A stretch of 17,312 bases of DNA from a virus. Taxonomy: Duplodnaviria; Heunggongvirae; Uroviricota; Caudoviricetes. Under the pieces are notes generated by a model, which saw nothing but the letters and a program-made list of their open reading frames with translations, was not told where the DNA came from and did no database searches. Shown piece after piece: positions 1 to 15,554 of this stretch (its first letter is position 1; the number at the start of each line of letters is the position of its first letter). The stretch is taken from positions 1 to 17,312 of the IMG/VR virus record IMGVR_UViG_2531839532_000013. One strand, 5' to 3'. The position numbers were made by a program, and so were the translations under genes.

Positions 1-483
1 ATGACGAAGAAAAAAGCACATAAACCTGGTTCAGCGACCATCGCGCTTAACAAGCGCGCCCGTCACGAATACTTTATCGAAGAAGAGTTCGAAGCGGGAC
101 TTGCCCTGCAAGGCTGGGAAGTTAAATCCCTGCGCGCAGGAAAAGCCAATATCAGCGACAGCTACGTCCTTCTGCGTGACGGAGAGGCATTTCTGTTTGG
201 CGCTAACATCACGCCAATGGCCGTGGCCTCCACGCATGTGGTGTGCGATCCTACCCGTACCCGCAAGTTACTTCTCAACCAGCGCGAACTGGACTCATTG
301 TACGGTCGCGTCAATCGAGAAGGCTATACCGTAGTGGCGCTCTCCCTGTACTGGAAAAATGCCTGGTGCAAAGTGAAAATCGGCGTCGCCAAAGGTAAGA
401 AACAGCACGATAAACGTTCAGATATCAAAGAGCGCGAATGGCAGGTGGATAAAGCACGTATCATGAAAAACGCCCACCGTTAA
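1..483 (+). CDS. smpB: SsrA-binding protein SmpB (trans-translation cofactor), complete 160 aa
   Basis: Full ORF starting with ATG at window position 1; the translated protein is recognisably enterobacterial SmpB; it sits immediately upstream of tmRNA, the conserved smpB-ssrA arrangement. Confidence 0.95.
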
Positions 484-671
484 ACCTGCACTCCAATTAT
501 TGACCAGTTCCTCACCGCGCCTCCCTCTCCGGCGGCGCGAATGAACATCTTATTGGCTATCACATCCGACACAAATGTTGCCATCCCATTGCTTAATCGA
601 ATAAAAATCAGGCTACATGGGTGCTAAATCTTTAACGATAACGCCATTGAGGCTGGTCATGGCGCTCATAA

Positions 672-683
672 ATCTGGTATACT
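672..683 (+). promoter_or_regulatory. Candidate ssrA promoter, extended -10 element (TGnTATACT) about 14 nt upstream of the mature tmRNA 5' end
   Basis: Sequence ctggtatact at 674-683 gives TG 675-676 and TATACT 678-683; no good -35 found, consistent with an extended -10 promoter. Position relative to the mature 5' end implies a short precursor leader. Inference only. Confidence 0.35.
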
Positions 684-697
684 TACCTTTACACATT

Positions 698-1060
698 GGG
701 GCTGATTCTGGATTCGACGGGATTTGCGAAACCCAAGGTGCATGCCGAGGGGCGGTTGGCCTCGTAAAAAGCCGCAAAAAATAGTCGCAAACGACGAAAA
801 CTACGCTTTAGCAGCTTAATAACCTGCTTAGAGCCCTCTCTCCCTAGCCTCCGCTCTTAGGACGGGGATCAAGAGAGGTCAAACCCAAAAGAGATCGCGT
901 GGAAGCCCTGCCTGGGGTTGAAGCGTTAAAACTTAATCAGGCTAGTTTGTTAGTGGCGTGTCCGTCCGCAGCTGGCAAGCGAATGTAAAGACTGACTAAG
1001 CATGTAGTACCGAGGATGTAGGAATTTCGGACGCGGGTTCAACTCCCGCCAGCTCCACCA
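698..1060 (+). ncRNA. ssrA: tmRNA (SsrA, 10Sa RNA), 363 nt, ending in CCA
   Basis: Starts GGGGCTGATTCTGGATTCGACGGG (tRNA-like acceptor 5' half), contains the tag-encoding frame, ends GGTTCAACTCCCGCCAGCTCCACCA (T-arm and acceptor 3' half); matches E. coli tmRNA as I recall it. Confidence 0.95.
787..819 (+). other. tmRNA internal tag reading frame (resume codon GCA to TAA) encoding ANDENYALAA
   Basis: GCA AAC GAC GAA AAC TAC GCT TTA GCA GCT TAA read directly at 787-819 inside ssrA. Confidence 0.9.
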
Positions 1061-1070
1061 AATAAATCAA

Positions 1071-1103
1071 GGGGTTACGTGAAAGCGTAGCCCCTTTTTC
1101 TTT
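1071..1103 (+). terminator. Rho-independent terminator of ssrA
   Basis: Stem GGGGTTACG (1071-1079) / CGTAGCCCC (1086-1094) with one G-U pair, loop TGAAAG, followed by TTTTTCTTT (1095-1103). Confidence 0.7.
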
Positions 1104-1203
1104 GGTAGTGGCGGCAAAATGGCGACAGACTTTTGCGTCCATCTTGCCTGTCGCCATCTTGAAATCATGCAAAGAGGTTTCACATGGAAGAACTTCACTT
1201 TGT

Positions 1204-2541
1204 TTACATCAATGCAAATGGTCGTATCTCCAGCACGCGCTGGATGGTTCCCATCGCATCCTTCGTCATCTGCTTTTCAATCACTTCAGGATTGAGTTTC
1301 AGCAGATTCATCCCTTCAAAGAAACTCTTGCTTTGCATGGTGGCAATGGACAATTCACGCACCATCGCGTTTGCTGCACTGGCTGCAACCTCTGGCGCAG
1401 CGCCCAGTGTCAGGAAGGTGGAACCCAGCGCCGCCGCTTTACGATAATCCAGACGGTCAGCCACACCGCCCAGACGTTGCATCACATCAATGATGTCTGC
1501 CCCTTTCGACATGGCGTTATCATCCAGATAGTTCAGCGCATCGCCGAGCTGTTCAATATTGCGGGTAGGTATTTTGTAGAGCTGGGCGATTTTCCCCAGA
1601 CTTTCTGACAGTTCATCCGCTGGCAGCTCAAAGGCTGTGGCCGCCTTTGCTGCCGTACTGGCGAAGGCCAGCAGGTCACGTTTCTGGTCTTCCCAGCTGT
1701 CGTCAGGGTTTGCGACGTTCATGCGCGCACCACCTTCAACCAGTGCAGCGAAATCCACCGCACCGTTTTCCATCGGCAACTGTTCGCTGGCAGCCTTGAT
1801 GGCATCCTGCATTTCATAAAAACGTGCAGTGCGGTTGCCATTATCGTCACGCAGGCCATTGACCTGCTTTGCCACACCTTTCATGGCATCTTCCATGCTG
1901 GTATAGCTTTTTACTGCCACCATCACTGGTGCGCCCATTGCCAGCCCTGCAGCCGTGGTGGTGGCTCCGGCACCTGCAATACGATCACGCACCTCCAGCG
2001 AACGGGCATAACTGGCACGCGCTGCATTCATCCTGCGCTGAGCTTCCCCCAGTCGCTTCAGCCGCGCCTCCTGTTTCGAAAGTTCCTGGTTATAACGTGA
2101 TGTTTCACGGGCTAAACGGGCAGTTGCTCCCGCATCGTCTTTCGCAGAAATTCCCGCCCGGTACAGTTCAGCACGCACAAGCGCCGTCTGCTGCTGCAGC
2201 TTTTTCTGGCGTTCTTCCAGGCGCTGAACAGCCAGCCGTTGACGGCCCAGAGCAACAACCTGACGTTGCGAAGGCGGCCCCATCGCTCCCAGTTCCTGAC
2301 TGAGCAAATTTGCACGCTGGCGGGCATAGTTCAGCCTGTCGCCTAATTTCTGATTTTCTGCCTGCAGCTTTCGGAAGCTGTCCAGACTGCTCCCGGCCTG
2401 ATCAAGCTGCTTTATTGCATCGCGGGATTTTTTGACAGCAGCAGCCAGTTCTCTTGAACTGGCCTGCGCAGATCGAAATGGGCGGGTGAGCTTGTCAACC
2501 GCATTAAGAATGACCTGCAGACGCAGGTTGTTATCACTCAT
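1204..2541 (-). pseudogene. Tail tape-measure protein (P2 gpT-like), N-terminal 445-aa fragment, C-terminally truncated
   Basis: ATG at 2541 overlaps the stop of the upstream -1 frame extension (ATGAGTGA), the P2 E'/T arrangement. N-terminal coiled-coil region rich in Q/R/A/L followed by a tape-measure-core-like segment (KAAALGSTFLTLGAAPEVAASAANAMVRELSIATMQ). The ORF stops at 445 aa, about 140 bp from the ssrA terminator, whereas P2-type tape measures are roughly twice that length. Confidence 0.65.
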
Positions 2542-2713
2542 CGTTGGCCCCGCTTCTCTGAATCGCTTTATACCGCCATTCCAGCACTTCGGTCAGCGGC
2601 ATAACGTCAGTAACGGATGGCGGCCAGTGAAAAATGGTGGCGATATCTGCCACCAGATCGTCAACCGTCAGGCTGTCGGAAAACCGGCAAGCACCGACTT
2701 CTTCAACAAAAAA
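2534..2713 (-). CDS. gpE' -1 frame extension (E+E' frameshift product), open from the slippery site to a TGA overlapping the tape-measure ATG
   Basis: Hand translation of the -1 frame from the heptamer (minus strand, 2713 to 2707) gives 57 sense codons (VEEVGACRFSDSLTVDDLVADIATIFHWPPSVTDVMPLTEVLEWRYKAIQRSGANDE) ending at TGA 2536-2534, which overlaps the T-fragment ATG at 2541-2539. Confidence 0.55.
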   Translation of the reverse strand, partial: FFVEEVGACRFSDSLTVDDLVADIATIFHWPPSVTDVMPLTEVLEWRYKAIQRSGANDE

Positions 2714-2892
2714 GTGACAACCTCAACCGACATGGCAGTGAGATCTGCCGGGTCCATCTCTGCAATTTCCTGTGCAGTCAGTGCCGGACTGGAGATGCGG
2801 GGGATCACGGTCATCATCGCGTTTACATCCATACCGCCTGTTGCACGCTGGCGGTAGTCCTGGCGGCTGTCTTCATGGCTCAGCTTGTCCAC
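2668..2892 (-). CDS. Tail assembly chaperone gpE-like ORF (possibly 5'-truncated); zero-frame product of the E/E' frameshift pair
   Basis: Small ORF immediately upstream of the tape-measure start on the same strand; contains slippery heptamer T TTT TTG twelve codons before its stop. The ORF-track start at 2892 is GTG; first ATG is at 2832. Assignment is by position and frameshift architecture, not by sequence identity. Confidence 0.5.
   Translation of the reverse strand: MDKLSHEDSRQDYRQRATGGMDVNAMMTVIPRISSPALTAQEIAEMDPADLTAMSVEVVTFLLKKSVLAGFPTA
2707..2713 (-). other. Programmed -1 ribosomal frameshift slippery heptamer TTTTTTG (X XXY YYZ form)
   Basis: Plus-strand caaaaaa at 2707-2713 reads T TTT TTG on the minus strand, in frame as ACT TTT TTG within the gpE-like ORF; the same heptamer is used by the P2 E/E' tail chaperone genes as I recall. 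Confidence 0.55.
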
Positions 2893-3617
2893 CTCAGCTG
2901 TGCCTGCAGGGCTGTCTCCAGCTCAGACAGGCGTTCTTCCTGTTCAGACAGGGATTTTTCGGTGCGCGCACTCAGGTTTTGCTGCTCAGTGGCAACCAGC
3001 TCCACGGCCTTATGCACATCAGAGAACCGGGCATCATCGGACTGCTCTTTTTTGGTGAACAGCGCCGTGACACGGGCAAACAGGGATGGTTTTTCGTCCT
3101 GGACTTCTTCCAGTTCGATCACCGTTTCCTCTGCAGCGGTAAAAAGATTGGCGGGATTCTGCTTGCGGTTTGCCAGCGGGTTATGGGCTGCACTGGCGCT
3201 GAATGTCAGCATTTCCGTACCCAGACTGGCGGGATCATCAGTGGCGGCCAGGCCAACCAGGTAGGCTTTGCCCGTATCAGCGAACTTCGGGCTGACTTCC
3301 ATAGAGGTGAATAATTTCTGGCCTTTTTTCACCAGTTCCACCAAGGACTCCGTTGGCTCAACGTCGGCATACAGCGCCATCTTGCCTGCCAGCGGACCTT
3401 CCGTGATTTCTTCAGCAAACAGCGCCGTCACCTTGCCGTAGCGGTTAAAGGTGCTGTCCGGAAGATAAGACTTGATGTGCTCAAGGTTAATCAGCGCGGT
3501 ATACACCGCCGGGTTGTAGCTGGCTGCCATCTGTTCCAGCCATTCACGCTGGATTTCACGTCCGTCGGTAGTGGCACCTTCCACCCCGATGCGAAAACGC
3601 TTTGCTTTCACTGTCAT
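2880..3617 (-). CDS. O: Capsid scaffolding protein gpO (P2 family), 245 aa; C-terminus probably altered by a deletion junction
   Basis: ATG at 3617 with GGAG upstream; protein shows the gpO pattern (RIGVEGATTDGREI..., INLEHIKSYLPD..., KAYLVGLAATDDPASLGTEMLTF, SDDARFSDVHKAVE). It is shorter than I recall for P2 gpO and ends in LRWTS directly overlapping the gpE-like ORF. Confidence 0.8.
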   Translation of the reverse strand: MTVKAKRFRIGVEGATTDGREIQREWLEQMAASYNPAVYTALINLEHIKSYLPDSTFNRYGKVTALFAEEITEGPLAGKMALYADVEPTESLVELVKKGQKLFTSMEVSPKFADTGKAYLVGLAATDDPASLGTEMLTFSASAAHNPLANRKQNPANLFTAAEETVIELEEVQDEKPSLFARVTALFTKKEQSDDARFSDVHKAVELVATEQQNLSARTEKSLSEQEERLSELETALQAQLRWTS

Positions 3618-3695
3618 GAGCCGTGCTCCGTTAGAAAAAACTTACTGGAGCCTTATGGTTGCGGTGATGGGGGCAGTGAAACAATGCGCGGTATT

Positions 3696-3713
3696 TGTAC
3701 CGACAACCACACA
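3696..3713. promoter_or_regulatory. TGT-N12-ACA dyad, the Ogr/B-type late-activator binding site of P2/186 late promoters, in the divergent O/P intergenic region
   Basis: TGT at 3696-3698, 12-nt spacer accgacaaccac, ACA at 3711-3713; centre lies about 87 nt upstream of the O start codon and 55 nt upstream of the P start codon. Confidence 0.45.
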
Positions 3714-3759
3714 AACCGCAGGCGGGGAAAGCCTTCATTCAAGGCTGTAGGTTTGTGCC

Positions 3760-5526
3760 ATGAACACCACACTGACACCCGCAGATCTCGATCCCCGTCG
3801 GCAGGCCATGCTGCTGTACTTTCAGGGATACCGCGTAGCCCGCATTGCTGAAATGCTGGGCGAGAAAGTTGCAACCGTTCACAGCTGGAAAAAACGCGAC
3901 AAGTGGGGTGACTATGGGCCGCTGGATCAGATGCAGCTCACCACCGCCGCACGCTACTGCCAGCTCATTATGAAGGAGCACAAAGAAGGGAAAGATTTCA
4001 AAGAGATTGACCTGCTGGCGCGCCAGTCGGAGCGCCACGCGCGGATCGGCAAGTTTAACAATGGCGGCAACGAAGCCGACTTAAACCCTAACGTCGCCAA
4101 CCGCAACAAAGGCCCGCGCCGTCAGCCGGAAAAGAATGTTTTCACCGATGAGCAGATTGAGAAGCTGGAAGAAATCTTCCATTCCTCCATGTTCAACTAC
4201 CAGCGCCACTGGTGGGAAGCCGGAAAAGCCAACCGCATCCGCAACCTGCTGAAGTCACGCCAGATCGGCGCGACCTTTTACTTTGCCCGTGAAGCCCTGA
4301 TTGACGCCCTGCTTACCGGACGTAACCAGATTTTCCTTTCCGCCAGCAAGGCACAGGCCCACGTCTTTAAGCAGTACATCATCGACTTCGCCAAAGAAGT
4401 GGAGGTGGAGTTGAAAGGCGATCCGATGGTGCTTCCTAACGGGGCCACGCTTTACTTCCTCGGCACCAATGCCCGCACTGCCCAGAGTTATCACGGCAAC
4501 CTGTATCTGGATGAATATTTCTGGATACCGAAATTCCAGGAGCTGCGCAAAGTGGCTTCCGGTATGGCTATTCACAAAAAATGGCGACAAACCTATTTTT
4601 CCACGCCATCCAGCCTGACTCACAGTGCTTATCCGTTCTGGTCCGGTGCGCTGTTCAATCGTGGGCGCAACAAAGCCGATAAGGTGGACATCGACCTGTC
4701 CCACAGCAATCTGGCCCCCGGCCTGCTGTGCGCAGACGGGCAGTACCGCCAGATAGTCACTGTGGAAGATGCGGTGCGCGGCGGCTGTAACCTGTTCGAC
4801 CTCGACCAGTTGCGCATGGAGTACAGCCCGGACGAATACCAGAACCTGCTGATGTGCGAGTTTGTGGACGATCTCGCGTCCGTGTTTCCGCTCAGCGAGC
4901 TGCAGGCGTGCATGGTGGACAGTTGGGAAGTCTGGACCGACTTTCATGCTCTGGCCCTGCGCCCGTTTGGCTGGCGCGAAGTGTGGATCGGTTATGACCC
5001 GGCAAAAGGTACGCAGAACGGCGACAGCGCCGGATGCGTGGTGGTGGCACCGCCAGCCGTGCCGGGCGGTAAGTTTCGCATTCTTGAGCGTCACCAGTGG
5101 CGCGGGATGGACTTCCGCGCCCAGGCTGACGCAATCAAAAAACTGACCGAGCAGTACAACGTGACCTACATCGGCATCGACTCAACCGGCGTTGGTCACG
5201 GGGTTTACGAGAACGTGAAAGCGTTCTTTCCTGCCGTCCGGGAGTTTGTCTACAACCCCAACGTTAAAAACGCCCTGGTACTCAAGGCCTACGACATTAT
5301 CAGCCACCGCCGTCTGGAGTTTGACGCCGGACATACCGACATTGCGCAGTCATTTATGGCAATCCGTCGCGCCACCACCGCCAGTGGCAACCGCCCGACC
5401 TATGAAGCCAGCCGCAGCGAAGAAGCCAGCCACGCCGATCTGGCATGGGCAACAATGCACGCACTGTTTAACGAACCGCTGCAGGGCGAATCCGCCAATA
5501 CCAGCAATATTGTGGAGATTTTTTGA
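3760..5526 (+). CDS. P: Terminase large (ATPase/nuclease) subunit gpP, 588 aa
   Basis: ATG at 3760; strong resemblance to P2 gpP throughout (QAMLLYFQGYRVARIAEMLGEKVATVHSWKKRDKW, KSRQIGATFYFAREALIDALLTGRNQIFLSASKAQAHVFKQYII, WIGYDPAKG...DSAGCVVVAPP); stop TGA overlaps the Q start. Confidence 0.92.
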   Translation: MNTTLTPADLDPRRQAMLLYFQGYRVARIAEMLGEKVATVHSWKKRDKWGDYGPLDQMQLTTAARYCQLIMKEHKEGKDFKEIDLLARQSERHARIGKFNNGGNEADLNPNVANRNKGPRRQPEKNVFTDEQIEKLEEIFHSSMFNYQRHWWEAGKANRIRNLLKSRQIGATFYFAREALIDALLTGRNQIFLSASKAQAHVFKQYIIDFAKEVEVELKGDPMVLPNGATLYFLGTNARTAQSYHGNLYLDEYFWIPKFQELRKVASGMAIHKKWRQTYFSTPSSLTHSAYPFWSGALFNRGRNKADKVDIDLSHSNLAPGLLCADGQYRQIVTVEDAVRGGCNLFDLDQLRMEYSPDEYQNLLMCEFVDDLASVFPLSELQACMVDSWEVWTDFHALALRPFGWREVWIGYDPAKGTQNGDSAGCVVVAPPAVPGGKFRILERHQWRGMDFRAQADAIKKLTEQYNVTYIGIDSTGVGHGVYENVKAFFPAVREFVYNPNVKNALVLKAYDIISHRRLEFDAGHTDIAQSFMAIRRATTASGNRPTYEASRSEEASHADLAWATMHALFNEPLQGESANTSNIVEIF

Positions 5527-6566
5527 TGGGAAAGAGTAAGAAGAACCGAGCTGCGGCGACGAAACAGATCCAGCTTAAAAGTCAAACTACAGCCGAAGCA
5601 TTCAGCTTCGGCGATCCCGTTCCTGTTCTGGACCGCCGTGAACTGCTGGACTATGTGGAATGCGTACAGATGGACCGTTGGTATGAGCCGCCCGTCAGCT
5701 TTGACGGACTGGCGCGCACCTTCCGCGCCGCCGTGCATCACAGTTCCCCGATTGCAGTAAAGTGCAACATTCTGACCAGTACCTATATCCCTCATCCGCT
5801 GCTCAGCCAGCAGGCTTTTTCGCGTTTTGTGCAGGACTATCTGGTATTTGGTAACGCCTACCTGGAGAAACGCACGAACCGATTCGGTGAAGTTATCGCC
5901 CTTGAGCCTGCGCTGGCAAAATACACCCGACGCGGGTTAGACCTGGATACCTACTGGTTTGTGCAATACGGTATGACAACCCAGCCGTATCAGTTCACGA
6001 AAGGCAGCATTTTTCATCTAATGGAACCGGATATTAATCAGGAGATCTACGGCCTGCCCGGTTATCTTTCTGCAATTCCGTCTGCCCTGCTCAACGAGTC
6101 CGCCACGCTGTTCCGTCGAAAGTATTACATTAACGGCAGTCATGCAGGCTTCATCATGTACATGACCGATGCCGCGCAAAACCAGGAGGATGTGAACAAC
6201 CTCCGCAATGCGATGAAAAGCGCCAAAGGACCAGGTAACTTCCGCAATCTGTTTATGTACTCGCCTAACGGCAAAAAGGACGGGCTTCAGATCATCCCGT
6301 TGTCAGAAGTCGCGGCGAAGGATGAGTTTCTGAATATCAAGAACGTGAGCCGGGACGACATGATGGCAGCACACCGAGTGCCGCCGCAGATGATGGGGAT
6401 TATGCCTAATAATGTAGGGGGGTTTGGGGATGTGGAGAAAGCCAGCCGGGTATTTGTTCGGAATGAACTGATGCCTTTACAAAAACGCATTGCCGAAATT
6501 AATGAATGGTTAGATGAAGAGGTAGTCAAATTTGAATATTATGGCTTAGAAAATAATCAGTCATAA
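5526..6566 (+). CDS. Q: Portal vertex protein gpQ
   Basis: ATG at 5526 overlaps the P stop (TTGATGG); the ORF-track start at 5523 is a TTG. Co-oriented with and coupled to gpP and divergent from gpO, as in P2. Confidence 0.85.
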   Translation: MGKSKKNRAAATKQIQLKSQTTAEAFSFGDPVPVLDRRELLDYVECVQMDRWYEPPVSFDGLARTFRAAVHHSSPIAVKCNILTSTYIPHPLLSQQAFSRFVQDYLVFGNAYLEKRTNRFGEVIALEPALAKYTRRGLDLDTYWFVQYGMTTQPYQFTKGSIFHLMEPDINQEIYGLPGYLSAIPSALLNESATLFRRKYYINGSHAGFIMYMTDAAQNQEDVNNLRNAMKSAKGPGNFRNLFMYSPNGKKDGLQIIPLSEVAAKDEFLNIKNVSRDDMMAAHRVPPQMMGIMPNNVGGFGDVEKASRVFVRNELMPLQKRIAEINEWLDEEVVKFEYYGLENNQS

Positions 6567-6572
6567 AAAAGA

Positions 6573-6605
6573 AGTGAACAAGTTGAAATTATCAGCTTGT
6601 TCACT
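6573..6605. terminator. Bidirectional rho-independent terminator between convergent Q and the Q-cos cargo genes
   Basis: Perfect 10-bp stem AGTGAACAAG (6573-6582) / CTTGTTCACT (6596-6605) with a 13-nt loop; A6 run upstream on the plus strand (a U-run for the minus strand) and a weak T-rich tract downstream. Confidence 0.65.
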
Positions 6606-6621
6606 ATTATCTGTATTATCT

Positions 6622-6891
6622 CTACTGCATCCGTCCGGGTAAATCGCTTTCATTGCGTAAACGCCAAGCTAACTGTTCACGATCCCAAACTATATCGTCT
6701 TTGCTAGCCTTTCTAAAATTTGCTAGCACAGTACTGCTTATAGCGTAATTACCATTCTCATTAGTTTTGATGAACTCGTCCCCAAAGTCATTGATTAGAA
6801 ATTCAACAACCTCGGACTGATACAACACACCATTAGAACGAGTGGTATTAACCATCCAGTCAACTATTTTTATCAGAGAATCATTCATCAT
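6622..6891 (-). CDS. Hypothetical protein, about 88 aa, unrecognised; second gene of an overlapping two-gene cargo unit
   Basis: ORF-track start at 6912 is TTG; tandem ATG codons at 6891 and 6888 preceded by GAGAG. The start overlaps the stop of the upstream gene by 11 nt (minus-strand ATGATGAATGA). Visibly AT-rich relative to the phage core. Confidence 0.55.
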   Translation of the reverse strand: MMNDSLIKIVDWMVNTTRSNGVLYQSEVVEFLINDFGDEFIKTNENGNYAISSTVLANFRKASKDDIVWDREQLAWRLRNESDLPGRMQ

Positions 6892-7090
6892 CACTCTCAG
6901 CTTTTGGAACAAATAAAACTAGAGTATCTTCATGAAAAACTCCGCGCTGGTTCTTAGCACCAATAAACCACGTACAAACTGCCATTGTAGCCGATTGGTA
7001 GTGATCAATTACCATGATTGGACCATGTCCTGTTGCATGTTTTACTTTCTGGCCCGGTGTATATTTTGCCACTCTCACGTCTCCTTTCAT
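6881..7090 (-). CDS. Small DUF2158 / YodC-like protein, 69 aa
   Basis: ATG at 7090; an AAGGAG motif inside the first codons precedes in-frame GTG codons, so the true start may be a few codons later. Sequence pattern (GDVRV...GHGPIMVIDH...CTWF...GVFHEDTLVLF) fits the small YodC/DUF2158 family as I recall it. Confidence 0.6.
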   Translation of the reverse strand: MKGDVRVAKYTPGQKVKHATGHGPIMVIDHYQSATMAVCTWFIGAKNQRGVFHEDTLVLFVPKAESDDE

Positions 7091-7151
7091 GTGTAAGTTA
7101 TCAATTTCAGAATATATCTACATTAATTGCAAGTAAACATGTTTGCGCGCG

Positions 7152-7170
7152 CTCGTATCCCCGCCACGCC
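7152..7170. other. Candidate cos (cohesive end) site of the P2/186 family
   Basis: CTCGTATCCCCGCCACGCC at 7152-7170 matches the reverse complement of the 186-type 19-nt cohesive end as I remember it at about 15 of 19 positions, including the CCCCGCCACGCC core; it lies between Q and the A side, where cos sits in P2. Confidence 0.45.
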
Positions 7171-7215
7171 TGCCCGCTTTATGTAGTGGTTTTCATGCAG
7201 GAGCATGATCTACGC

Positions 7216-7239
7216 AAAAGCCCGCCAGTTCTGGCGGGC
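7216..7239 (-). terminator. Terminator-like GC hairpin with U-run on the minus strand, just beside the cos candidate
   Basis: Stem GCCCGCCA (7220-7227) / TGGCGGGC (7232-7239), loop GTTC; plus-strand AAAA at 7216-7219 gives a U-run after the hairpin on the minus strand. Confidence 0.4.
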
Positions 7240-7512
7240 CTTAGCAAAAACGATCCTCAAACGATCATGCAATCTCATGCAGCATAGACATGCACAGACG
7301 AGTAAAGCGAATCGGACTTTACGCAAGGTGAACTCCTCAGCGGGCATAATCAGTATGTCGGAAGATCTCTAAAAATAAATAATTCGGTTAACAGGTATGC
7401 TTACAAAAGCATATATTTGATTAAAAATCATGTAAGGGGGAGGATCTCAAACTGAATCGCCACGGGTTTTACAAATTTCGATAGTCTCTCTAACGTTTCG
7501 GCTGAGGTCAAA

Positions 7513-7938
7513 ATGAAAAGCTTTTACGTATTAATTTTAATTCTGGTTGCAAGCTTTGTTAGCGTCCCAGTTCAGGCGGTAACAGCTAAAAACTATGAGA
7601 AAGGAACTAAAGCTCAACAGAAATCAATATCTTACCTTTCATGTGCATTCTATGGCAGTAGCACACAATTAGATCCTAGCTACACGGAGCAAGTACCTAC
7701 AGCCGATATCAAGATATTACAGAAAGCAGCTTACCACGCTTACAACGATGCGCTCTCATACTTTGGCTATGAGGAACCAGATCACGAACAACGCATAATT
7801 GATTATGCTGAATTTGTGGCGTCGCAAGAAGCTGTGTTATGGGATAAGCCGGGAATGAATGGAAAGCAGGTAACACTAATTGCTCGTTCTCTCTACAATG
7901 AGAGTAACTGTAACTTGTTACTGGACTCAATTAAGTAG
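7513..7938 (+). CDS. Hypothetical secreted (signal-peptide) protein, 141 aa; AT-rich cargo gene
   Basis: ATG at 7513 with GAGG 8 nt upstream; N-terminus MKSFYVLILILVASFVSVPVQA has basic-hydrophobic-AxA signal-peptide form; no family recognised; visibly AT-rich block. Confidence 0.65.
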   Translation: MKSFYVLILILVASFVSVPVQAVTAKNYEKGTKAQQKSISYLSCAFYGSSTQLDPSYTEQVPTADIKILQKAAYHAYNDALSYFGYEEPDHEQRIIDYAEFVASQEAVLWDKPGMNGKQVTLIARSLYNESNCNLLLDSIK

Positions 7939-8097
7939 GAAAAAGATGGTATTTTGCCCGTAGTTTCAACCTTAATCTCCGAACCTGTCGCAGAACGGGC
8001 GTTCACTCATCAAATAAACGCCACACCTAACGCCTCACTGTACTCGTTGTTCAACCTTGCTGACGCCAGAACCAAGTTCAGACGCCAGCAACTTTTC

Positions 8098-8331
8098 TTA
8101 ATGCAGCCAGCTGTCGTCTTCCCACACCTTCTGCATAATCTTCATCACTTGTTTTCTTTCTTCGTCCAGTTGCAGTCCGGTCAGTTCCACACCGTTAGAG
8201 CTACCTTTGCGGATGCGAATTACCGTTTTGGGATACAGGGGGCGCAGATTGCGGTAAAGCTCGGATTCAAGGGCGTCCAGGGGAGACTGGCTAATCTTCT
8301 GCTCTTTATCGATCATTATTTCAATGCGCAT
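8098..8331 (-). CDS. DinI-family protein (SOS-associated RecA modulator family), 77 aa from the internal ATG
   Basis: From ATG 8331 (GAGGGG upstream) the protein MRIEIMIDKEQKISQSPLDALESELYRNL...KQVMKIMQKVWEDDSWLH aligns by eye along its whole length with E. coli DinI. The longer ORF-track start at 8403 overlaps the upstream gene and is probably not used. Confidence 0.8.
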   Translation of the reverse strand: MRIEIMIDKEQKISQSPLDALESELYRNLRPLYPKTVIRIRKGSSNGVELTGLQLDEERKQVMKIMQKVWEDDSWLH

Positions 8332-8341
8332 AAAGGTCCCC

Positions 8342-8530
8342 TCAGCTGATGACATCCATTGAGCGGTTGTATTCGTGGGTTCTGATTTTTGCCATGAGTT
8401 CATCTGTCAGTTCAGAAACCCACTGCAAAGCCAGCCCCTTCTCTTCATCACTACACTCACTAGCCGCTACAAGCTTAAGAAAAAAATCAATGCGCTGGAG
8501 CTTCAAAGACTCCAAAAAATAGTCCTGCAT
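8342..8530 (-). CDS. Small hypothetical protein, 62 aa; possible Tum-like antirepressor N-terminal module
   Basis: ATG at 8530 preceded by AGGAGG; lies directly upstream of the DinI-like gene and downstream of a LexA box. The longer track ORF from 8632 has no comparable ribosome-binding site. Function is inferred from context only. Confidence 0.5.
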   Translation of the reverse strand: MQDYFLESLKLQRIDFFLKLVAASECSDEEKGLALQWVSELTDELMAKIRTHEYNRSMDVIS

Positions 8531-8571
8531 CTTTCCTCCTATGACACCACAAGCAATACTGTATACATAAC

Positions 8572-8591
8572 CACTGTTTATATTTACAGTA
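8572..8591. promoter_or_regulatory. LexA operator (SOS box), CTGT-N8-ACAG, upstream of the small-protein/DinI-like gene pair
   Basis: CACTGTTTATATTTACAGTA at 8572-8591 with CTGT 8574-8577 and ACAG 8586-8589; an additional half-site-like TACTGTATACATA at 8557-8569; located 42-61 nt upstream of the ATG at 8530. Confidence 0.7.
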
Positions 8592-8683
8592 TATAATAAT
8601 CTTACTGATGTAAAACGTTTTTTTACGTTCATTAGCCTGATATGCCTGGTATTATTAAGAGCACGAATTGTTAACCCGCGTAA

Positions 8684-11098
8684 TTAATACAGGTTTCGCC
8701 ACTTATCATCTTCCTGCAAACGCTGGTTCCGATAGAAGATACGCAGGCCTGCTCCTGACGGAATACTGCCGCCGCGAAGGAGTAAATCGACCTCTTTCTC
8801 GCTGCCATTAAATCCTCTGGACTTCAGTTCATAGACTAGCTGCTGTCGCTGATGGTCTGTAATTCGCTGTTTGTAGTCTTTACGCCGTTTCGGTTTCACC
8901 AGGCGTAACCTTGCAGCCAGTTCCCGGCGCTCTTTTTTGCTCATACTGTGCAGGTAATCGTGCAACTCCTTGTCATCCATGCGGGTAATGTCCGTCCTGG
9001 TATCCCCATCAGCTGATTTGTCTTTCCCTTGTTGGTTCAAATTTTCAGCAAGGGGACAGTTATTGCCACGAGTCCAAGGGGCGCAAGCGCCCTGGTCGGC
9101 TGCCGCCTCCTGAACGTCAACGGCTTTACGAACCATTTTCCACTTCACTGCATGAGTGCAGATCTTGCCCTCTGCAATGGGTGACCAGATGCCATAAATA
9201 CGAATACCGTGATCGCCATAGGCGGTCGGCTCTTCGTTGATTTCATAAGCGGTTCTGATGAGGTGATATTTACGGGGAACCAGTACGCCGCCCTGCTTCA
9301 TGATGTAGGTAGCAAAACAACCAGCATCAGCAGCAGCCAGAATGGCATCAAGACGCGGGTTATCCAGTACCGGCGCACCTGCTTTTTTGTCACCCTGTTG
9401 CCTTGCCACCTGACCAGCCAGCAAGCGAAGTTCACGGTAAGCCTGACGTCCCGGAATACCAAAGAAGCGGAATTGCTGTACACGATGCAGAGACGCCCAG
9501 GCATTAACGTATTCAGCGTTATCACGCAAGGATTTACCCGTTTCCTTACTGATCTCGCCAGCCAGACCACGCCCGTCAATGTTCTTACTGATGTATTTCG
9601 CGATGTAGCTTGTCGGCGTTCCTTTGCGCGGGTTTATCAGCTCAGACTTAAAGCGTGGCTCCGTGTTATTGCCCAGCTCCTCGCGGTCTTCACGGATGGC
9701 AAACTTACGCAGTAATGCAGTGATGGCGCGGCGGTCTTTTTTGCGCATGAAACACAATAGGTGCCAGTGAACGGTGCCGTCATGATGAGGCTCAGCCACC
9801 CGCACGCCATACCAGCGCAACCCGGCTTTATGCATAGCCTTACGAAATGCAGCAAACATGCCGACCAGATAATCGCTGCTTTGTCTTACCGTCGCATTTG
9901 TCCAGGTCGGGTTGGGCCTGCCGTTATTTAGCGTGGAATGGAAACGTGACGGACAGGTGATGGTGTAGAAAACGGCGCAGTCACCGCGCATTTCCGCGAT
10001 AAGCTCCAGACCTTTAACACAGGCCATCATCTCATTGCGGCGATGCGCAGGGTTGCTGCTGCTGGCGTTTACCACATCCTCCATGTCCAGTGTGTCGCCG
10101 TCTTCGTTCACCAGTTCATGAGAACGGAAAAACTCCAGTGACTTGCGGCGCTGCTCACGTTTATGCATCACGGCTTCATAGCTAACATAGGGAGATGCTT
10201 TTTTGCTGACCAGGCAGACAGCACGCAACTGCTCTTCCCGCCATTCGCAACGCATCTTCCATAATTTCCGATACCACCAGTCGGCGCACAACATACGCGC
10301 CAGCGAACCCGGAATGAGTTCATAGGGCACGGGTTTGCGGCGGTTTCTTTTCCGACGAAGTTGCTCAAACGCAGGCGGTATGACATCCAGTCGCAGGGTT
10401 TCCGCTGCTACCTTTTCCCATGTCTTGCGGATTTCTTCTGGCTTAACATCATCGGTGGCATACAAATCGCCACAAGCGGCATCAAGGCACATGCTCATAT
10501 GCGCAGCTACCAGGGTGGACAGGCGTTTTACCTGATCCTGACTCATTTCAGGCAGAATCAGCAGGCCGTCCAGCCCTTCATGGCTTGCCATAAAGCGAAA
10601 AGAAGTGGATAGCTGACTGTCGCGTACATGCTCCAGCCGTTCCAGACATGGCTTAATCGTCTTACGCAAATAGCGGGAATAAGCCTTTGGCCTGCCCAGT
10701 CTGCTGAAGTATTCAATACGTTGCATCAGCGGCTTGCTGATATGGGAAGGCTGGGCGTTAACGTCCGCCAGAATGACCATGTCTGGATTAAAACGCTGCT
10801 GCTCATGCGCCAGCTTTGCCCGGCTAATAAGCTTATCCTGCTCCATTTCGCGTTGGACAGGATCACGGGATTCATTAAAGAAATAACGCTCCCAGACCTG
10901 ATCACTCAGTGCCTCGCGGCGCAGCTGTTCCTGCTCGTTATCGGTAGCGTACAGAGTGATCAGGTTTGAAAGCGCAGAAACCGGCGCAACTTCCGCCGGG
11001 TCCAGATAAGGGTTAATAGCCTTTTTCGGGCTGTTCCATGAGAATGCTGCGGCGACCTCGTTAACGCCGCTGCAGTTGTTCATATCGGCATGACTCAT
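8684..11098 (-). CDS. A: Replication initiation endonuclease gpA (rolling-circle initiator), 804 aa
   Basis: ATG at 11098 overlaps the Dam stop (minus-strand ATGA); HUH-type motif within [10 protein letters not shown]; size and position at the end of the early operon match P2 gpA / 186 A. Confidence 0.85.
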
Positions 11099-11952
11099 GC
11101 ACGTACTCCGTACACGGCAGAACTATCCACGCCACGCGAATAATCAAATCCCACCCAGCAGCGCGGCCCGGAAACAGCAATGATTTCTGTTGCTGATTTA
11201 CCCTCGCCAGCTGCCACACCGATGCTGCGTTTTACCTTGATATAGTGGTGAGTAAAATTGCGATACAGCGAACGGATCAGGGATGTGTCACTGTTAGAAA
11301 CAATGACCGGATGTCCTTCTGATGACCGATGTTCAAGAACGGATGCAAGGTGATACTGGTCATCTTCAGTGAAACCGTCAGTGTGATAACCGGAAAACGT
11401 ACCGTCATACGGCGGATCGCAATACACCACATCCCCCGCCTTCAACATCGCCAGCGTTTCATCAAAGCTGGCGCAGATAAACGTTGCCCGCTGGGCTTTT
11501 TCTGCAAATGCGCGAATTTCTTTTTCAGGGAAATACGGATTTTTATAATTACCGTAGGGAATGTTGAAATGCCCGCTCTTGTTATAGCGACATAAACCAC
11601 GGTAACCGTGACGATTGAGATACAGGAAATATACCGCTTTCATGAAATCAGTAATTTCAGTTGAGTAATTAAACTCCTGCCTTATGTTGTAATAAGCCAC
11701 CTCCCTGTTTGCGATCTCAAATAAAACTCTGGCGCGAGATATAAATGATTCACAATCAGCAGCAACCTTTTTATAGAGGTTGATTAAATCAGGATTAATA
11801 TCCGCAACAAGATAGCTGGGGTACTCCGTCTCCATCATCACTGCACAGGAACCCGCGAAAGGTTCAACCAGTCGCGGGCCAGCAGGAAGGTGTTTTTTCA
11901 GTTCGGACATAATTGCGGTTTTATTTCCCGCCCATTTCAGGATGGTGCTCAT
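11095..11952 (-). CDS. DNA adenine methyltransferase (Dam family), about 285 aa
   Basis: ATG at 11952 with GGAGG upstream (track start 12012 is TTG); N-terminal LKWAGNK, AdoMet-binding-like EPFAGS, and catalytic DPPY motif; an unusual C-terminal tail reaches the A start. Confidence 0.85.
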
Positions 11953-12176
11953 ACAGCACCTCCGTTGTAATGTTTGCCTTTCAGCTCTGCGATTTCCTGA
12001 CAGGTAATGCAAAGCTGCACTCCAGGAATGGCGCGGCGGCGTGCTGGCGGAATTGGCACTTCACATTCAATGCAAAGCACGCGAGACACGCCCGGTGTTT
12101 TGGCACGGGCAGCACGAATATGGCGCTGGCGTTCTTCTTCAACGCGCTGCTGTACGAGATCCATTGCATCAGCCAT
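11949..12176 (-). CDS. TraR/DksA-type C4 zinc-finger protein, 75 aa
   Basis: CxxC-N17-CxxC (CIECEVPIPPARRRAIPGVQLCITC); start ATG overlaps the upstream stop (TAATG) and its stop overlaps the Dam ATG (ATGA). Confidence 0.7.
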   Translation of the reverse strand: MADAMDLVQQRVEEERQRHIRAARAKTPGVSRVLCIECEVPIPPARRRAIPGVQLCITCQEIAELKGKHYNGGAV

Positions 12177-12409
12177 TAGTGGATCTCCTGCGCTTCGTTC
12201 TGGATTGCTTCAGCGGTCACACGCAGCAGTTCTGCCGCTTCGACGTGGTTTAGCTGGCGGGATGTGATATGACACGCAAGACTATCAAGGCGGGCAGCCA
12301 TTGCTTCAGCCCTTGCCCGGCGTTCTTCCAGACGAGCCTCTGTCAGTAAAATATTTAGCCCTACGTCATCCGGTCCGGTTTTAGTCGTGAGGGTTTCAAT
12401 ATTACGCAT
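12176..12409 (-). CDS. Hypothetical early-operon protein, about 77 aa
   Basis: ATG at 12409 preceded by AGGAG (track start 12415 is TTG); translationally coupled to the zinc-finger gene. Confidence 0.5.
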   Translation of the reverse strand: MRNIETLTTKTGPDDVGLNILLTEARLEERRARAEAMAARLDSLACHITSRQLNHVEAAELLRVTAEAIQNEAQEIH

Positions 12410-12476
12410 AATCAATTCTCCTGAATTTAGATAAAGGGATGCCCGGCGGGTTTACGCCATTAATTTCATTAGCTGG

Positions 12477-12818
12477 TTAATTCGGCATGGTTAGCCGTCT
12501 GGGAAATAAGCTCACCACTGCACGAAAATGATTCATTGCTTTAATCAACTCCCGCTTTTCGTCAGTGGTCAGCTCATTAATGCTGATGCTATGACGTTCA
12601 GCTGGAATTTTTGCCATAAAGAATATGGCAGCCAGTGCCCGTTTATTTTGTTCGCTATTAATATCCCGTGGATCACGCATATCTTTAATAAACCGTTCAA
12701 GCTCTGACTCAATATTAAGACCAAAAACTTTCGCCCTTAACTCCGCAATATGATTAAGTCCATTCAGGCGTTCACCGGGGCTTAATGGAACAGTCGCCGC
12801 AGCGCCTTCAATAGCCAT
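12477..12818 (-). CDS. Hypothetical early-operon protein, 113 aa
   Basis: ATG at 12818 preceded by GGGGGA; same strand and operon as the flanking early genes. Confidence 0.55.
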   Translation of the reverse strand: MAIEGAAATVPLSPGERLNGLNHIAELRAKVFGLNIESELERFIKDMRDPRDINSEQNKRALAAIFFMAKIPAERHSISINELTTDEKRELIKAMNHFRAVVSLFPRRLTMPN

Positions 12819-12982
12819 TTGTTCCCCCGTTTTTTCGTAGATAGTTCTGCCAGCAATTCATCTTGTGAACGGCACGGATGCCAGCGTTTACCATCCTCAC
12901 CCATGATCCAGCCGTGACCGTAGTGCATTGCCGGGCTTTGTTTAACCAGCAGCGATGCAAATGATGGTTCTTTCGTAAGCAT
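12782..12982 (-). CDS. Hypothetical small early protein, about 66 aa
   Basis: ATG at 12982 preceded by GAGGTG, 7 nt after the CII-like stop; overlaps the next gene's start by 37 nt. Confidence 0.4.
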   Translation of the reverse strand: MLTKEPSFASLLVKQSPAMHYGHGWIMGEDGKRWHPCRSQDELLAELSTKKRGNKWLLKALRRLFH

Positions 12983-12989
12983 AAGCACC

Positions 12990-13499
12990 TCACAGCAAAC
13001 CGAATGAAGCACCGAGGCCAGTCACGGTATCAACTGCACTCGCCATCGCAGGGTTAGCCTGTAAACGGGCCTGCAGTGAAACAGCAGCCAGCGCCATCAG
13101 TCGTGTTACAGAGTTAATGCTGCTGATAGCATCACGACGACCTGCACTGGTTTTTACATCGCCAGATACCGCACCTGCAGCAACACGCCCGATCTCTGCG
13201 GTTGCACTCATGACGTAATGCGGCAGTTTCTCTTTTGCTACCTCATTAATCGGTACACATGGCAGGCAGTGAATCTGTGCCAGAAAACCATCTATCAGCG
13301 TTGAATCTTCAGTCAGATCGGTAAGCAGCCAGATTTCTGGCGCATTGAGCTGATGCGGTTGATCTGGGTTGAGTTTGTTTCGCAGAGTCTGGACATTCAT
13401 TCCTGCACGTTCTGCCAGCTTCGCCATATTGTGACGAAGTGCAAAAGCTCTACAGGCTTCATCAAAATGCGGGTGTTTGGAAATCTTATAATCAAACAT
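12990..13499 (-). CDS. CII-like transcriptional activator (phage 186 CII-like), 169 aa
   Basis: ATG at 13499 preceded by AGGGGG; second gene of the leftward early operon after the Cox/Apl-like gene; HTH-like segment; strong resemblance to 186 CII as I recall it (MFD...SKHPH.DEACRAFA.RHNMAKLAE.AGMNVQTLRNKLNP...). Confidence 0.6.
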   Translation of the reverse strand: MFDYKISKHPHFDEACRAFALRHNMAKLAERAGMNVQTLRNKLNPDQPHQLNAPEIWLLTDLTEDSTLIDGFLAQIHCLPCVPINEVAKEKLPHYVMSATAEIGRVAAGAVSGDVKTSAGRRDAISSINSVTRLMALAAVSLQARLQANPAMASAVDTVTGLGASFGLL

Positions 13500-13531
13500 G
13501 CTACCCCCTTAGAAAGTTCTCATAATTGAAC

Positions 13532-13774
13532 TCACTTACCAACAATGACGCGGAAGTTGGAATGACCGAGGGATTCACGGACCTGATCGGTTTTGTACAT
13601 TAAATAACGCAGACTTACGCGGCCTTTGTTTTTTTCTTTCTTGACCATGTATTTAGCAAGCTGACCATGGTGAATTTTTTGATACACGGAGCCGCGGGAG
13701 ATACCTTCCCATTCCGCGAACTCTGCAGGCGTAGCCATCTCTTTTGGTACACGAATTGAAATATCAGTGCTCAT
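13532..13774 (-). CDS. Cox/Apl-like excisionase / early transcriptional regulator, 80 aa
   Basis: ATG at 13774 preceded by GGGAG; first gene of the lytic operon, facing the repressor gene; HTH-like segment. Confidence 0.6.
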   Translation of the reverse strand: MSTDISIRVPKEMATPAEFAEWEGISRGSVYQKIHHGQLAKYMVKKEKNKGRVSLRYLMYKTDQVRESLGHSNFRVIVGK

Positions 13775-13809
13775 AGTGCAGTATCTCCCGATTAAGGTTT
13801 GGTTTACGT

Positions 13810-13876
13810 CGTTTTATCTCGTTTTACTTGATTCAATATTTGATACATAGAGATACTACGATCCAATATTTGATAC
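13810..13876. promoter_or_regulatory. Immunity-region operator candidates: two 13-bp direct repeats CAATATTTGATAC and tandem CGTTTTA repeats
   Basis: CAATATTTGATAC at 13834-13846 and 13864-13876 (30-bp spacing), overlapping the spacer and downstream side of the leftward promoter; CGTTTTA at 13810-13816 and 13820-13826. Confidence 0.5.
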
Positions 13877-13881
13877 GTCAA
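13853..13881 (-). promoter_or_regulatory. Strong sigma70 early lytic promoter (leftward): -35 TTGACG, 17-nt spacer, -10 TAGTAT
   Basis: On the minus strand TTGACG (plus 13876-13881), spacer TATCAAATATTGGATCG, TAGTAT (plus 13853-13858); drives the Cox/Apl-like to A operon. Confidence 0.55.
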
Positions 13882-13893
13882 CAGGATTAAAAA

Positions 13894-14526
13894 ATGATAC
13901 AGGTAAAGGCTGGAGAGAATACAGGGGGAAGAGAGGCTATCCATAGACTAATGGCAGCCTATGATTTCAAGTCCAGACAGCAACTTTGCGATCACTTAGG
14001 CGCATCAAAAAGCACCATGGCAAACAGATACTTAAGAGATAGTTTTCCTGCAGAGTGGGTGATTCAGTGCGCCTTGGAAACAGGAGTTTCTTTACTGTGG
14101 CTAACCACCGGACAGGGAGAGCCAGGTCCAAACATTAAACCTAAAAAAAATATCAATTCCGTGAACTCCAGCAAGGTTGTACCTCTTTCTGAACTAGTAT
14201 CTCCTGAAATTGACAAGGCGACTCTCAACGGTGGTTTATTGGTCGATGCTGGAAAAGCAATCATTGATAGCAGCATACTCCCCTCAGACTCAAGCAACCT
14301 ACTGCTGGTGACTACTTCTGGTGATTCTTATTTAATAGATCGCAACCAAACACCACCAGTAAATGGTATGTGGTTAGTCGATATCGACGGGATAAAAAGC
14401 ATTGTTAAATTGACTCGGCTCCCGGGAAACAAATTAGTAGTGCATCAGGATGATTCATCGTTTGAGTGCGGTCTGGATGACATTGAGGTAGTAGGCCGCG
14501 CACTGAAAATCATTAAGAGCCTTTGA
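13894..14526 (+). CDS. CI-type immunity repressor (phage 186 CI-like), 210 aa
   Basis: ATG at 13894 with AGGA upstream; N-terminal HTH region (...STMANRYLRDSFPAEWVIQCALETGVSLLWLTTGQGEP) resembles 186 CI; immediately upstream of and co-oriented with int. Confidence 0.75.
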   Translation: MIQVKAGENTGGREAIHRLMAAYDFKSRQQLCDHLGASKSTMANRYLRDSFPAEWVIQCALETGVSLLWLTTGQGEPGPNIKPKKNINSVNSSKVVPLSELVSPEIDKATLNGGLLVDAGKAIIDSSILPSDSSNLLLVTTSGDSYLIDRNQTPPVNGMWLVDIDGIKSIVKLTRLPGNKLVVHQDDSSFECGLDDIEVVGRALKIIKSL

Positions 14527-14527
14527 T

Positions 14528-15541
14528 ATGACCATCAGAAAACAGCCGAACGGAAAATGGTTGTGTGAGTGCTATCCCAATGGACGCAATGGCAAGCGCG
14601 TGCGTAAGCAATTTGCTACGAAAGGCGAAGCCATTGCGTTTGAAAGCTTCACAATGGAAGAAGTGAATAAAAAACCGTGGTTGGGTGAAAAGGATGATCG
14701 GCGACGCCTATCAGAATTAATTGAGCTTTGGTATTCCCTGTATGGTCAAACACTCGCAGACCCCAAGCGCCTCATGGCGAAACTTAGAATTATCTGTAAT
14801 GGTCTAGGCGATCCCATCGCCTCAGAACTGACAGCTGGTGACTTTACAAAATACCGCGAAGCACGGTTAAAAGGTGAAATACGAAATGAAGATGGCACAC
14901 TTATGTCGCCCGTAAAGCCCCGTACGGTAAACCTTGAACAGCGCAATCTATCATCTGTGTTCGGTACATTAAAAAAACTAGGACACTGGTCAGCACCAAA
15001 CCCGCTGGCAGGACTTCCGACCTTCAAAATTGCCGAAGGTGAGCTGGCTTTTCTTTCCACGGACGAAATCAAGCGCCTGTTGGCGGCATGTGCTGAATCT
15101 CAAAACCCTAGCTTACTAATGATTGCAAAAATATGCCTAGCTACTGGCGCACGGTGGAGTGAAGCCGAAAATCTGCAGGGCCACCAAATATCGAAATACC
15201 GAATTACTTATACAAAAACAAAAGGCAAGAAAAACAGAACAGTACCCATATCACAGGAGCTGTATGACGAACTCCCAAAGAACAGAGGGAAGTTATTCTC
15301 ACCATGTAGAAAAGCCTTTGAACGAGCAGTAAAACGGGCAGGTATAGATCTACCGGATGGCCAATGCACCCACGTGCTGCGACATACGTTTGCTAGCCAC
15401 TTTATGATGAATGGCGGGAACATACTTGTGCTAAGGGATATTTTGGGACATTCGGATATCAAGATGACCATGGTTTACTCACATTTCTCACCAGATCATC
15501 TTGAAGATGCCGTTACTAAGAACCCATTAAACTTGATATAA
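14528..15541 (+). CDS. int: Tyrosine integrase, P2/186 type, 337 aa
   Basis: ATG at 14528, 1 nt after the repressor stop; strong resemblance to P2 Int including GRNGKR near the N-terminus, LATGARWSEA, HVLRHTFASHFMMNGG and the catalytic-tyrosine region MVYSHF. Confidence 0.92.
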   Translation: MTIRKQPNGKWLCECYPNGRNGKRVRKQFATKGEAIAFESFTMEEVNKKPWLGEKDDRRRLSELIELWYSLYGQTLADPKRLMAKLRIICNGLGDPIASELTAGDFTKYREARLKGEIRNEDGTLMSPVKPRTVNLEQRNLSSVFGTLKKLGHWSAPNPLAGLPTFKIAEGELAFLSTDEIKRLLAACAESQNPSLLMIAKICLATGARWSEAENLQGHQISKYRITYTKTKGKKNRTVPISQELYDELPKNRGKLFSPCRKAFERAVKRAGIDLPDGQCTHVLRHTFASHFMMNGGNILVLRDILGHSDIKMTMVYSHFSPDHLEDAVTKNPLNLI

Positions 15542-15554
15542 AACAGCCAAAATT

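Follow-up and report, generated by a model that had tools for sequence, protein, structure and literature searches.

The window analysed here, a 17,312-nt stretch of viral DNA (IMG/VR record IMGVR_UViG_2531839532_000013, positions 1 to 17,312), carries the remains of a P2-like prophage in which a −1 frameshift cassette lies on the minus strand at positions 2534–2892. The cassette belongs to the tail-assembly chaperone gene E and its −1 extension E', which precede the tape-measure gene T. Judged by sequence, the locus can be assigned as the 3' two-thirds of a tail-assembly-chaperone recoding cassette of the P2 family (Peduoviridae, Wadgaonvirus-like). A cassette of this kind is nothing new: it is conserved throughout the family, and pipelines annotate it routinely. 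We conclude that the present copy is very probably the remnant of such a P2-type cassette, a nonfunctional relic that is intact through recency. The main value of this result lies in a correction of the annotation: the “gpE-like” open reading frame (ORF) is a chimera of the scaffold gene O and gene E, the relic looks unexpressed, and the intactness of its signal reflects youth and not selection. A by-product of wider value is the synonymous-site conservation of a Shine-Dalgarno (SD)-like motif, GAGGUG, across P2-like phages of many genera.

Overall organization of the frameshift cassette

The recoding signal and the reading frame that it opens comprise the following features.

2707..2713, minus strand: slippery heptamer T TTT TTG, the −1 slip site, in the X XXY YYZ register of the E frame
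2534..2707, minus strand: E' extension in the −1 frame, 57 codons plus TGA (PF06528), ending within the T start ATGAGTGA
2720..2724, minus strand: SD-like GAGGU upstream of the heptamer, complementary to the anti-SD sequence

A reading of this DNA from the sequence alone had described a heptamer lying 12 codons before the 0-frame stop and a −1 frame that is open for 57 codons up to a TGA overlapping the tape-measure ATG. Both observations were confirmed by re-reading the minus strand and translating the two frames. The E frame reads ACT TTT TTG at the slip site (2715–2707, minus strand), after which 12 sense codons (LKKSVLAGFPTA) lead to the TGA at 2670..2668. The −1 frame translates as VEEVGACRF...RSGANDE without any internal stop and terminates at the TGA at 2536..2534. 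As is characteristic of this class, the −1 ORF lacks its own start codon and its end overlaps the start of the tape-measure gene, whose fragment T' (PF10145) follows downstream; the E' TGA and the tape-measure ATG (2541..2539) share the overlap ATGAGTGA at positions 2541–2534.

Profile searches revealed that the −1 part matches the Pfam family Phage_P2_GpE (PF06528) over the whole profile (positions 1–37 of 37, 5.6e-19), and gave a match between the 0-frame part and PF10109, the family of E-type chaperones. Alignment to the P2 E and E+E' proteins found homology in both frames: in a BLASTP comparison, the conceptual slipped product aligns with residues 45–142 of P2 E+E' at 51% identity, gap-free across the slip site (5e-37). 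Together with the PF06528 match, this alignment bears out the earlier proposal of a P2 E/E' frameshift layout. The P2 record NC_001895 annotates a −1 frameshift at the same heptamer, in homologous codons (misc_feature 19685). The last 39 codons of E' are called by PGAP as “GpE family phage tail protein” (WP_000763311.1), a product identical in the remnant of Escherichia coli strain 300709 and in an intact prophage of E. coli LF4-1.

The E gene is truncated and fused to O

The remnant was compared by BLAST mapping to the intact Escherichia phage 500465-1 (NC_049342; Peduoviridae, Wadgaonvirus), which is integrated at the same ssrA site, and to the sister element at the same locus of E. coli 300709. 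Relative to the latter, the window has 0 mismatches over positions 1–6700, the sole difference being a 16-bp deletion in the O pseudogene O'. The features at and around the E end of the cassette are listed below.

2668..2833, minus strand: E-derived fragment, codons 47–100 of 100 plus stop; the 5' 137–139 nt of E are gone
2834..2892, minus strand: O-derived codons 248–267, which give the “gpE-like” ORF its false 5' end; gpO of 500465-1 and 300709 contains VDKLSHEDSRQDYRQRATGG
2880..3617, minus strand: O' scaffold pseudogene, 241 native codons plus 4 (PF05929, 8e-105)
2893..2894: site of the 16-bp deletion; CAGCTTTTAACGAACT is lost compared to strain 300709 and phage 500465-1

Intact E of phage 500465-1 (NC_049342 24057–24359) has 100 codons and starts with MSDKQTEK... 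The fragment in the window has lost the first 46 of these codons along with the start codon and the ribosome-binding site, and covers only positions 38–78 of the 79-position PF10109 profile, compared to positions 1–78 for intact E. A complete 0-frame E, with its own start and a full PF10109 domain, is absent. Moreover, the cassette does not sit between FII and the tape-measure gene in a late tail operon, its upstream neighbor being the O' pseudogene.

The 74-codon ORF at 2668–2892, taken previously for a “gpE-like ORF” and a “retained E”, turned out to be a chimera of O codons 248–267 and E codons 47–100 that is devoid of E codons 1–46, of the E start and of its ribosome-binding site. Its apparent start at 2892 is a GTG that encodes Val within O, here read in the E frame. 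At the same locus of E. coli 300709, an in-frame O(1–267)::E(47–100) fusion ORF of 321 codons is found, slip site included, and PGAP calls a 54-aa “phage tail assembly protein” at the E fragment of that strain. In the window, the 16-bp deletion puts O out of frame, and O' therefore ends at 2880.

Deletion map of the remnant

Mapping against phage 500465-1 resolved the remnant into three collinear blocks separated by two deletions.

2832..2833: 13,044-bp deletion junction with 2-bp microhomology; 500465-1 11150–24193 gone
1227..1228: 4,093-bp deletion junction with 2-bp microhomology; 500465-1 25801–29893 gone
1204..2541, minus strand: T' tape-measure fragment (PF10145), 438 of 1,025 native codons plus 7 junction-encoded codons (445 codons)
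698..1060, plus strand: ssrA (transfer-messenger RNA), the prophage attachment site, with smpB before it at the window start

The first block (window 1–1228) corresponds to 31121–29894 of 500465-1 and contains host DNA and the prophage end; the second (1227–2833) corresponds to 25800–24194 at 99.3% identity, and the third (2832–5528) to 11149–8437. The 13,044-bp deletion took the end of O, N, M, L, X, the lysis genes, R, S, the baseplate and fiber genes, FI, FII and E codons 1–46, whereas the 4,093-bp deletion took 587 codons from the C-terminal end of T together with U, D, ogr and a portion of one more ORF, so that 17.1 kb are gone compared to 500465-1. The element lacks the full set of head, tail, lysis and late-control genes that defines a functional P2-like (Peduoviridae) prophage, and the two deletions (13.0 kb and 4.1 kb) account for the earlier observation of a prophage without tail genes. 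PGAP labels T' as “incomplete, missing C-terminus”, and both T and O are annotated as pseudogenes in strain 300709. The locus represents a clean case of stepwise prophage decay, in which two microhomology deletions were followed by the 16-bp deletion.

The intact Wadgaonvirus-type ssrA prophages, 500465-1 and that of E. coli LF4-1, share 99.3–99.9% nucleotide identity with the window over T'-E'-E(47–100), as well as the same attachment site and cassette layout. Unlike the window, they possess E with all of its 100 codons, a complete T and every tail gene.

An independent P2-like remnant is present at another chromosomal site in E. coli H6 (NZ_CP010170, near ybjL), where an O-to-E' deletion has a different junction and T is frameshifted. 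This suggests that loss of the block from O to E/E' is a recurrent route of decay.

Age of the remnant and selection

The T'-E'-E block differs from the intact LF4-1 prophage at only 2 positions over 1,607 nt (0.12%). The 300-nt E/E' part contains a single private change: at position 2680, a T in the window replaces the A common to all relatives, and the encoded residue is altered in both frames (Leu to Phe in frame 0, Thr to Ser in frame −1). When 5,426 complete E. coli genomes were searched, the 13-kb junction was found in one of them, strain 300709, and the 4.1-kb junction likewise in that genome only, and the undeleted flanks of both junctions are carried by hundreds of E. coli genomes.

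Under neutrality, the 171-nt −1 frame is expected to have received about 0.2 substitutions, and 2.9% of the possible ones create a stop, which gives 0.006 expected stops. Since the remnant is very young, an open −1 frame and an intact slip site are what neutral decay would leave. The intactness of the signal confirms the identity of the module but is no evidence of its maintenance. The sequence-only reading had offered the “preserved” signal as evidence, which holds for the identity of the module; as to preservation, with so few differences and 0.006 stops expected, it is uninformative. Selection on the remnant was accordingly rejected as untestable or absent, given the two differences and the junctions confined to one genome.

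Expression state

Promoter P_F and the activator gene ogr are both deleted, and P_O is the sole late promoter left upstream of the cassette; in the sister element of strain 300709, no ogr gene is annotated. A possible activator site of P_O remains.

3696..3713: TGT-N12-ACA dyad between the divergently oriented genes P and O, where an Ogr-type activator site of P_O/P_P is expected

The TGT-N12-ACA pattern occurs 4 times in the window against 4.1 expected, and the dyad is assigned by its position, which is comparable to that of the annotated P2 activator site (3057–3087) relative to O. A sigma-70 promoter scan of positions 900–3900 returned no sites, as expected because late promoters are activator-dependent. 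At the level of translation, O' terminates at 2880 out of the E frame, and no convincing SD sequence was found at the internal ATG at 2832, the start chosen by PGAP. A protein begun at E residue 47 would be without half of the chaperone domain.

We infer that transcription of the cassette would need Ogr or Delta supplied in trans, and that the cassette is most likely a silent relic. The suggestion that E, E' and the T N-terminus “could still be expressed” is unsupported, with P_F and ogr deleted and the O' frame ending at 2880.

Conservation of the slip site and candidate stimulators

The layout of a 100-aa E, 12 codons past the slip site, a 57-codon extension and the overlap ATGAGTGA is exact in 78 of 80 close IMG/VR relatives. 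A wider set comprised 78 usable loci from different bacterial species, spanning Enterobacterales to Burkholderiales at 45–96% identity. In 77 of these 78 loci, E' occupies the −1 frame and the overlap contains an in-frame heptamer (U6G in 64, U6A in 12 and U7 in one). Among the 74 unique relatives, the T run is exactly six in 73, the register is always X XXY YYZ, and Z is G or A in 73.

E and E' share one frame in two relatives, namely IMG/VR UViG_2734481921_000002, which has a T8 run (1742–1749), and Candidatus Symbiopectobacterium (1438–1443), whose locus has a local deletion ahead of the T6 run. They may represent homopolymer sequencing errors, pseudogenes or naturally fused variants.

A search for a downstream stimulatory structure, as the earlier reading had advised, found none that is conserved. 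The single-sequence fold of 74 nt from the heptamer gave z = −1.09 against shuffles, and RNAalifold on 30 diverse sequences gave 0 pairs. A local GUCGG...CCGAC stem was considered as a downstream stimulator and rejected; it is present in enterobacterial copies and is not kept in other relatives. The fold results agree with the published absence of hairpins at the P2-type site (PMC3091744).

In addition, a terminator-like hairpin, TGGTGGCAGATATCGCCACCA followed by TTTTT, lies at 2635–2655 on the minus strand, within the E' coding extension and about 52 nt 3' of the heptamer. It may act as a weak attenuator within the operon, or the match may be due to chance. As a frameshift stimulator it was rejected: the distance is too great, and it is not kept in distant relatives.

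Upstream of the heptamer, the pattern differs. The GAGG in the window ends 8 nt ahead of the heptamer's second base, a spacing that fits SD-stimulated −1 programmed ribosomal frameshift signals. GAGG or AGGTG stands at this fixed spacing in 61 of the 74 unique relatives, compared to 14% of background positions, and the codons three and two before the one that contains the first base of the heptamer are nearly always GAG GTG. The choice of Glu codon at the motif is strongly biased, with 60 GAG against 4 GAA, compared to 40% GAG at other Glu codons of the same genes; for Val, GTG is used in 51 of 64, against a background of 42%. This synonymous bias acts on the RNA, because only frame 0 codes at the motif. 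The sequence of the motif and its spacing fall within classes listed as experimentally stimulatory (Sharma et al., PMC4066793). Codon usage and position thus point to GAGGUG as a putative upstream SD-like stimulator of the frameshift. A limited literature search found no description of a GAGGUG stimulator for the P2-type class, and no T_TTT_TTG or gpE entry was found in those supplement files of Sharma et al. 2014 that were examined.

Proposed mechanism and comparison with known systems

In phage P2, slippage at TTTTTTG gives a 91-aa E and a 142-aa E+E' from one start, as described in PMC3091744, which cites Christie et al. 2002 and Xu et al. 2004. Frameshifting at the present locus is itself predicted by homology. 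We propose that, in the intact phage, ribosomes translating gene E would reach U UUU UUG, where about 1 in 10 would slip back one base; the slipped ribosomes would add 57 codons to yield E+E', with a stop that overlaps the T start. The two products would then act as analogues of lambda G and GT. The signal would consist of the heptamer and the upstream SD-like GAGGUG, with no downstream RNA structure. The slip frequency in P2 is reportedly about 10%, and E' is said to be essential there; if confirmed as a stimulator, GAGGUG would explain slippage at that level without a downstream structure.

The P2 E/E+E' pair of the FETUD operon (Christie et al. 2002, J Bacteriol 184:6522; NC_001895) is among the closest known systems: besides the same heptamer in homologous codons and the gap-free alignment, both loci have an 8-nt overlap between the E' stop and the T start (ATGAGTAA in P2, ATGAGTGA here), both lack a downstream structure, and both carry an SD-like AGGUG upstream. 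They differ in that the E of the window is joined to a remnant of O and has no codons 1–46, that FI, FII, U, D, ogr and P_F have been lost here, and that T breaks off after 438 of its 1,025 codons. In addition, the 0-frame tail past the slip site is 12 codons long here, compared to 6 in P2.

The G/GT pair of phage lambda (Levin et al. 1993; Xu, Hendrix and Duda 2004, 2013, 2014) follows the same logic, with overlapping ORFs between the tail tube and tape-measure genes and a low-frequency −1 slip, but there is no sequence similarity and the heptamer differs, being G GGA AAG in lambda. The same roles are inferred for the short and long products in both systems: in lambda, the portion common to both products attaches to the tape measure, and the extension brings in the tube protein (PMC5009743). 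Similar to the P2-type sites, the dnaX and IS911 signals (Larsen et al. 1994; Prere et al. 2011; Sharma et al. 2014) have an anti-SD-complementary motif a few bases 5' of the heptamer (PMC4066793); they also possess a downstream hairpin, whereas none is conserved at P2-type sites.

Alternative explanations

It is very unlikely that the truncated cassette has been kept as useful, with the Ogr of a related P2-like phage, infecting or induced, turning on P_O and the resulting fragments poisoning tail assembly or otherwise benefiting the host. In the decoy form of this idea, which we also regard as highly improbable, the Ogr of an infecting phage would lead to truncated E, to E+E' by way of the intact slip site, and to the 445-residue T', which would titrate tail tube and tape-measure partners and lower the phage yield. 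That GAGGUG is a real stimulator of P2-type frameshifting is more likely than such a decoy. The activator-site dyad of P_O/P_P is kept, and the sequence of the E' domain and of T residues 1–438 is undamaged, but E has neither its own start nor its ribosome-binding site. The O::E junction is in frame in the sister strain 300709; in the window, however, the 16-bp deletion has already broken that frame, which looks like ongoing decay, and the sole difference in the cassette alters the amino acid in either frame. Defense cargo is indeed present in the region, in the form of an anti-phage dCTP deaminase gene at the far end of the element. Nevertheless, with the junctions found in one genome and a divergence of 0.12% from intact phages, selection has had no time to become visible, and the independent O-to-E' deletion in strains H5/H6, with another junction and a frameshifted T, also argues against a useful remnant. 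The interpretation as a silent relic has points against it as well. As P_O is kept, Ogr or Delta of a co-resident P2-like phage or P4-like satellite could transcribe O'-'E-E'-T', the internal ATG at 2832 might permit some translation of E(47–100) and its slipped form, and low-level expression may thus be possible with a helper phage; in addition, the statistics of the SD-like motif ignore the shared ancestry of the relatives.

Two further explanations concern the signal itself. E+E' might arise through RNA polymerase slippage on the T6 run (transcriptional realignment) instead of ribosomal slippage, an explanation to which we give very little weight. The site is indeed a homopolymeric run, and the relative with T8, which has E and E' in one frame, is the type of variant expected of run-length instability. 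A run of six nucleotides is, however, shorter than is usually needed for productive polymerase slippage, and neither the constancy of the run, which is exactly six T long in 73 of the 74 unique relatives and never leaves the X XXY YYZ register, nor the conservation of the ribosome-specific GAGGUG at synonymous sites just upstream fits this explanation. For P2, moreover, experiments established the frameshift as translational (Christie et al. 2002, cited in PMC3091744). Finally, the heptamer and the open −1 frame might be a coincidence unrelated to recoding. The window contains 15 copies of TTTTTTG, with 6.8 expected, and the heptamer by itself is not significant. In combination with the two-frame arrangement it goes far beyond chance, given the homology of both frames to E and E'. 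Coincidence is refuted by the PF06528 match, the fused alignment to P2 E+E' and the same arrangement in 77 of 78 relatives, and its probability is close to nil.

Flanking regions

The retained prophage end between ssrA and the T' junction (1061–1228, 168 bp) includes the ssrA terminator hairpin at 1069–1096. If the remnant were ever expressed, transcription of T' would proceed in the direction of ssrA, in antisense orientation.

The RefSeq “complete genome” of 500465-1 holds about 9 kb of host chromosome (NC_049342.1 29456–39179, with smpB, ratA, bamE, recN, nadK, grpE and ffh) and begins inside gene A; the record is a prophage prediction with loose boundaries, as opposed to a packaged genome.

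At the other end of the window, just outside the integrase gene of the remnant (14528–15541), a 585-aa gene at 15555–17312 on the minus strand is identical to the “anti-phage dCTP deaminase” WP_001206704.1 of PGAP. In strain 300709, a second integrase follows the dCTP deaminase gene, which suggests tandem islands with defense cargo at ssrA.

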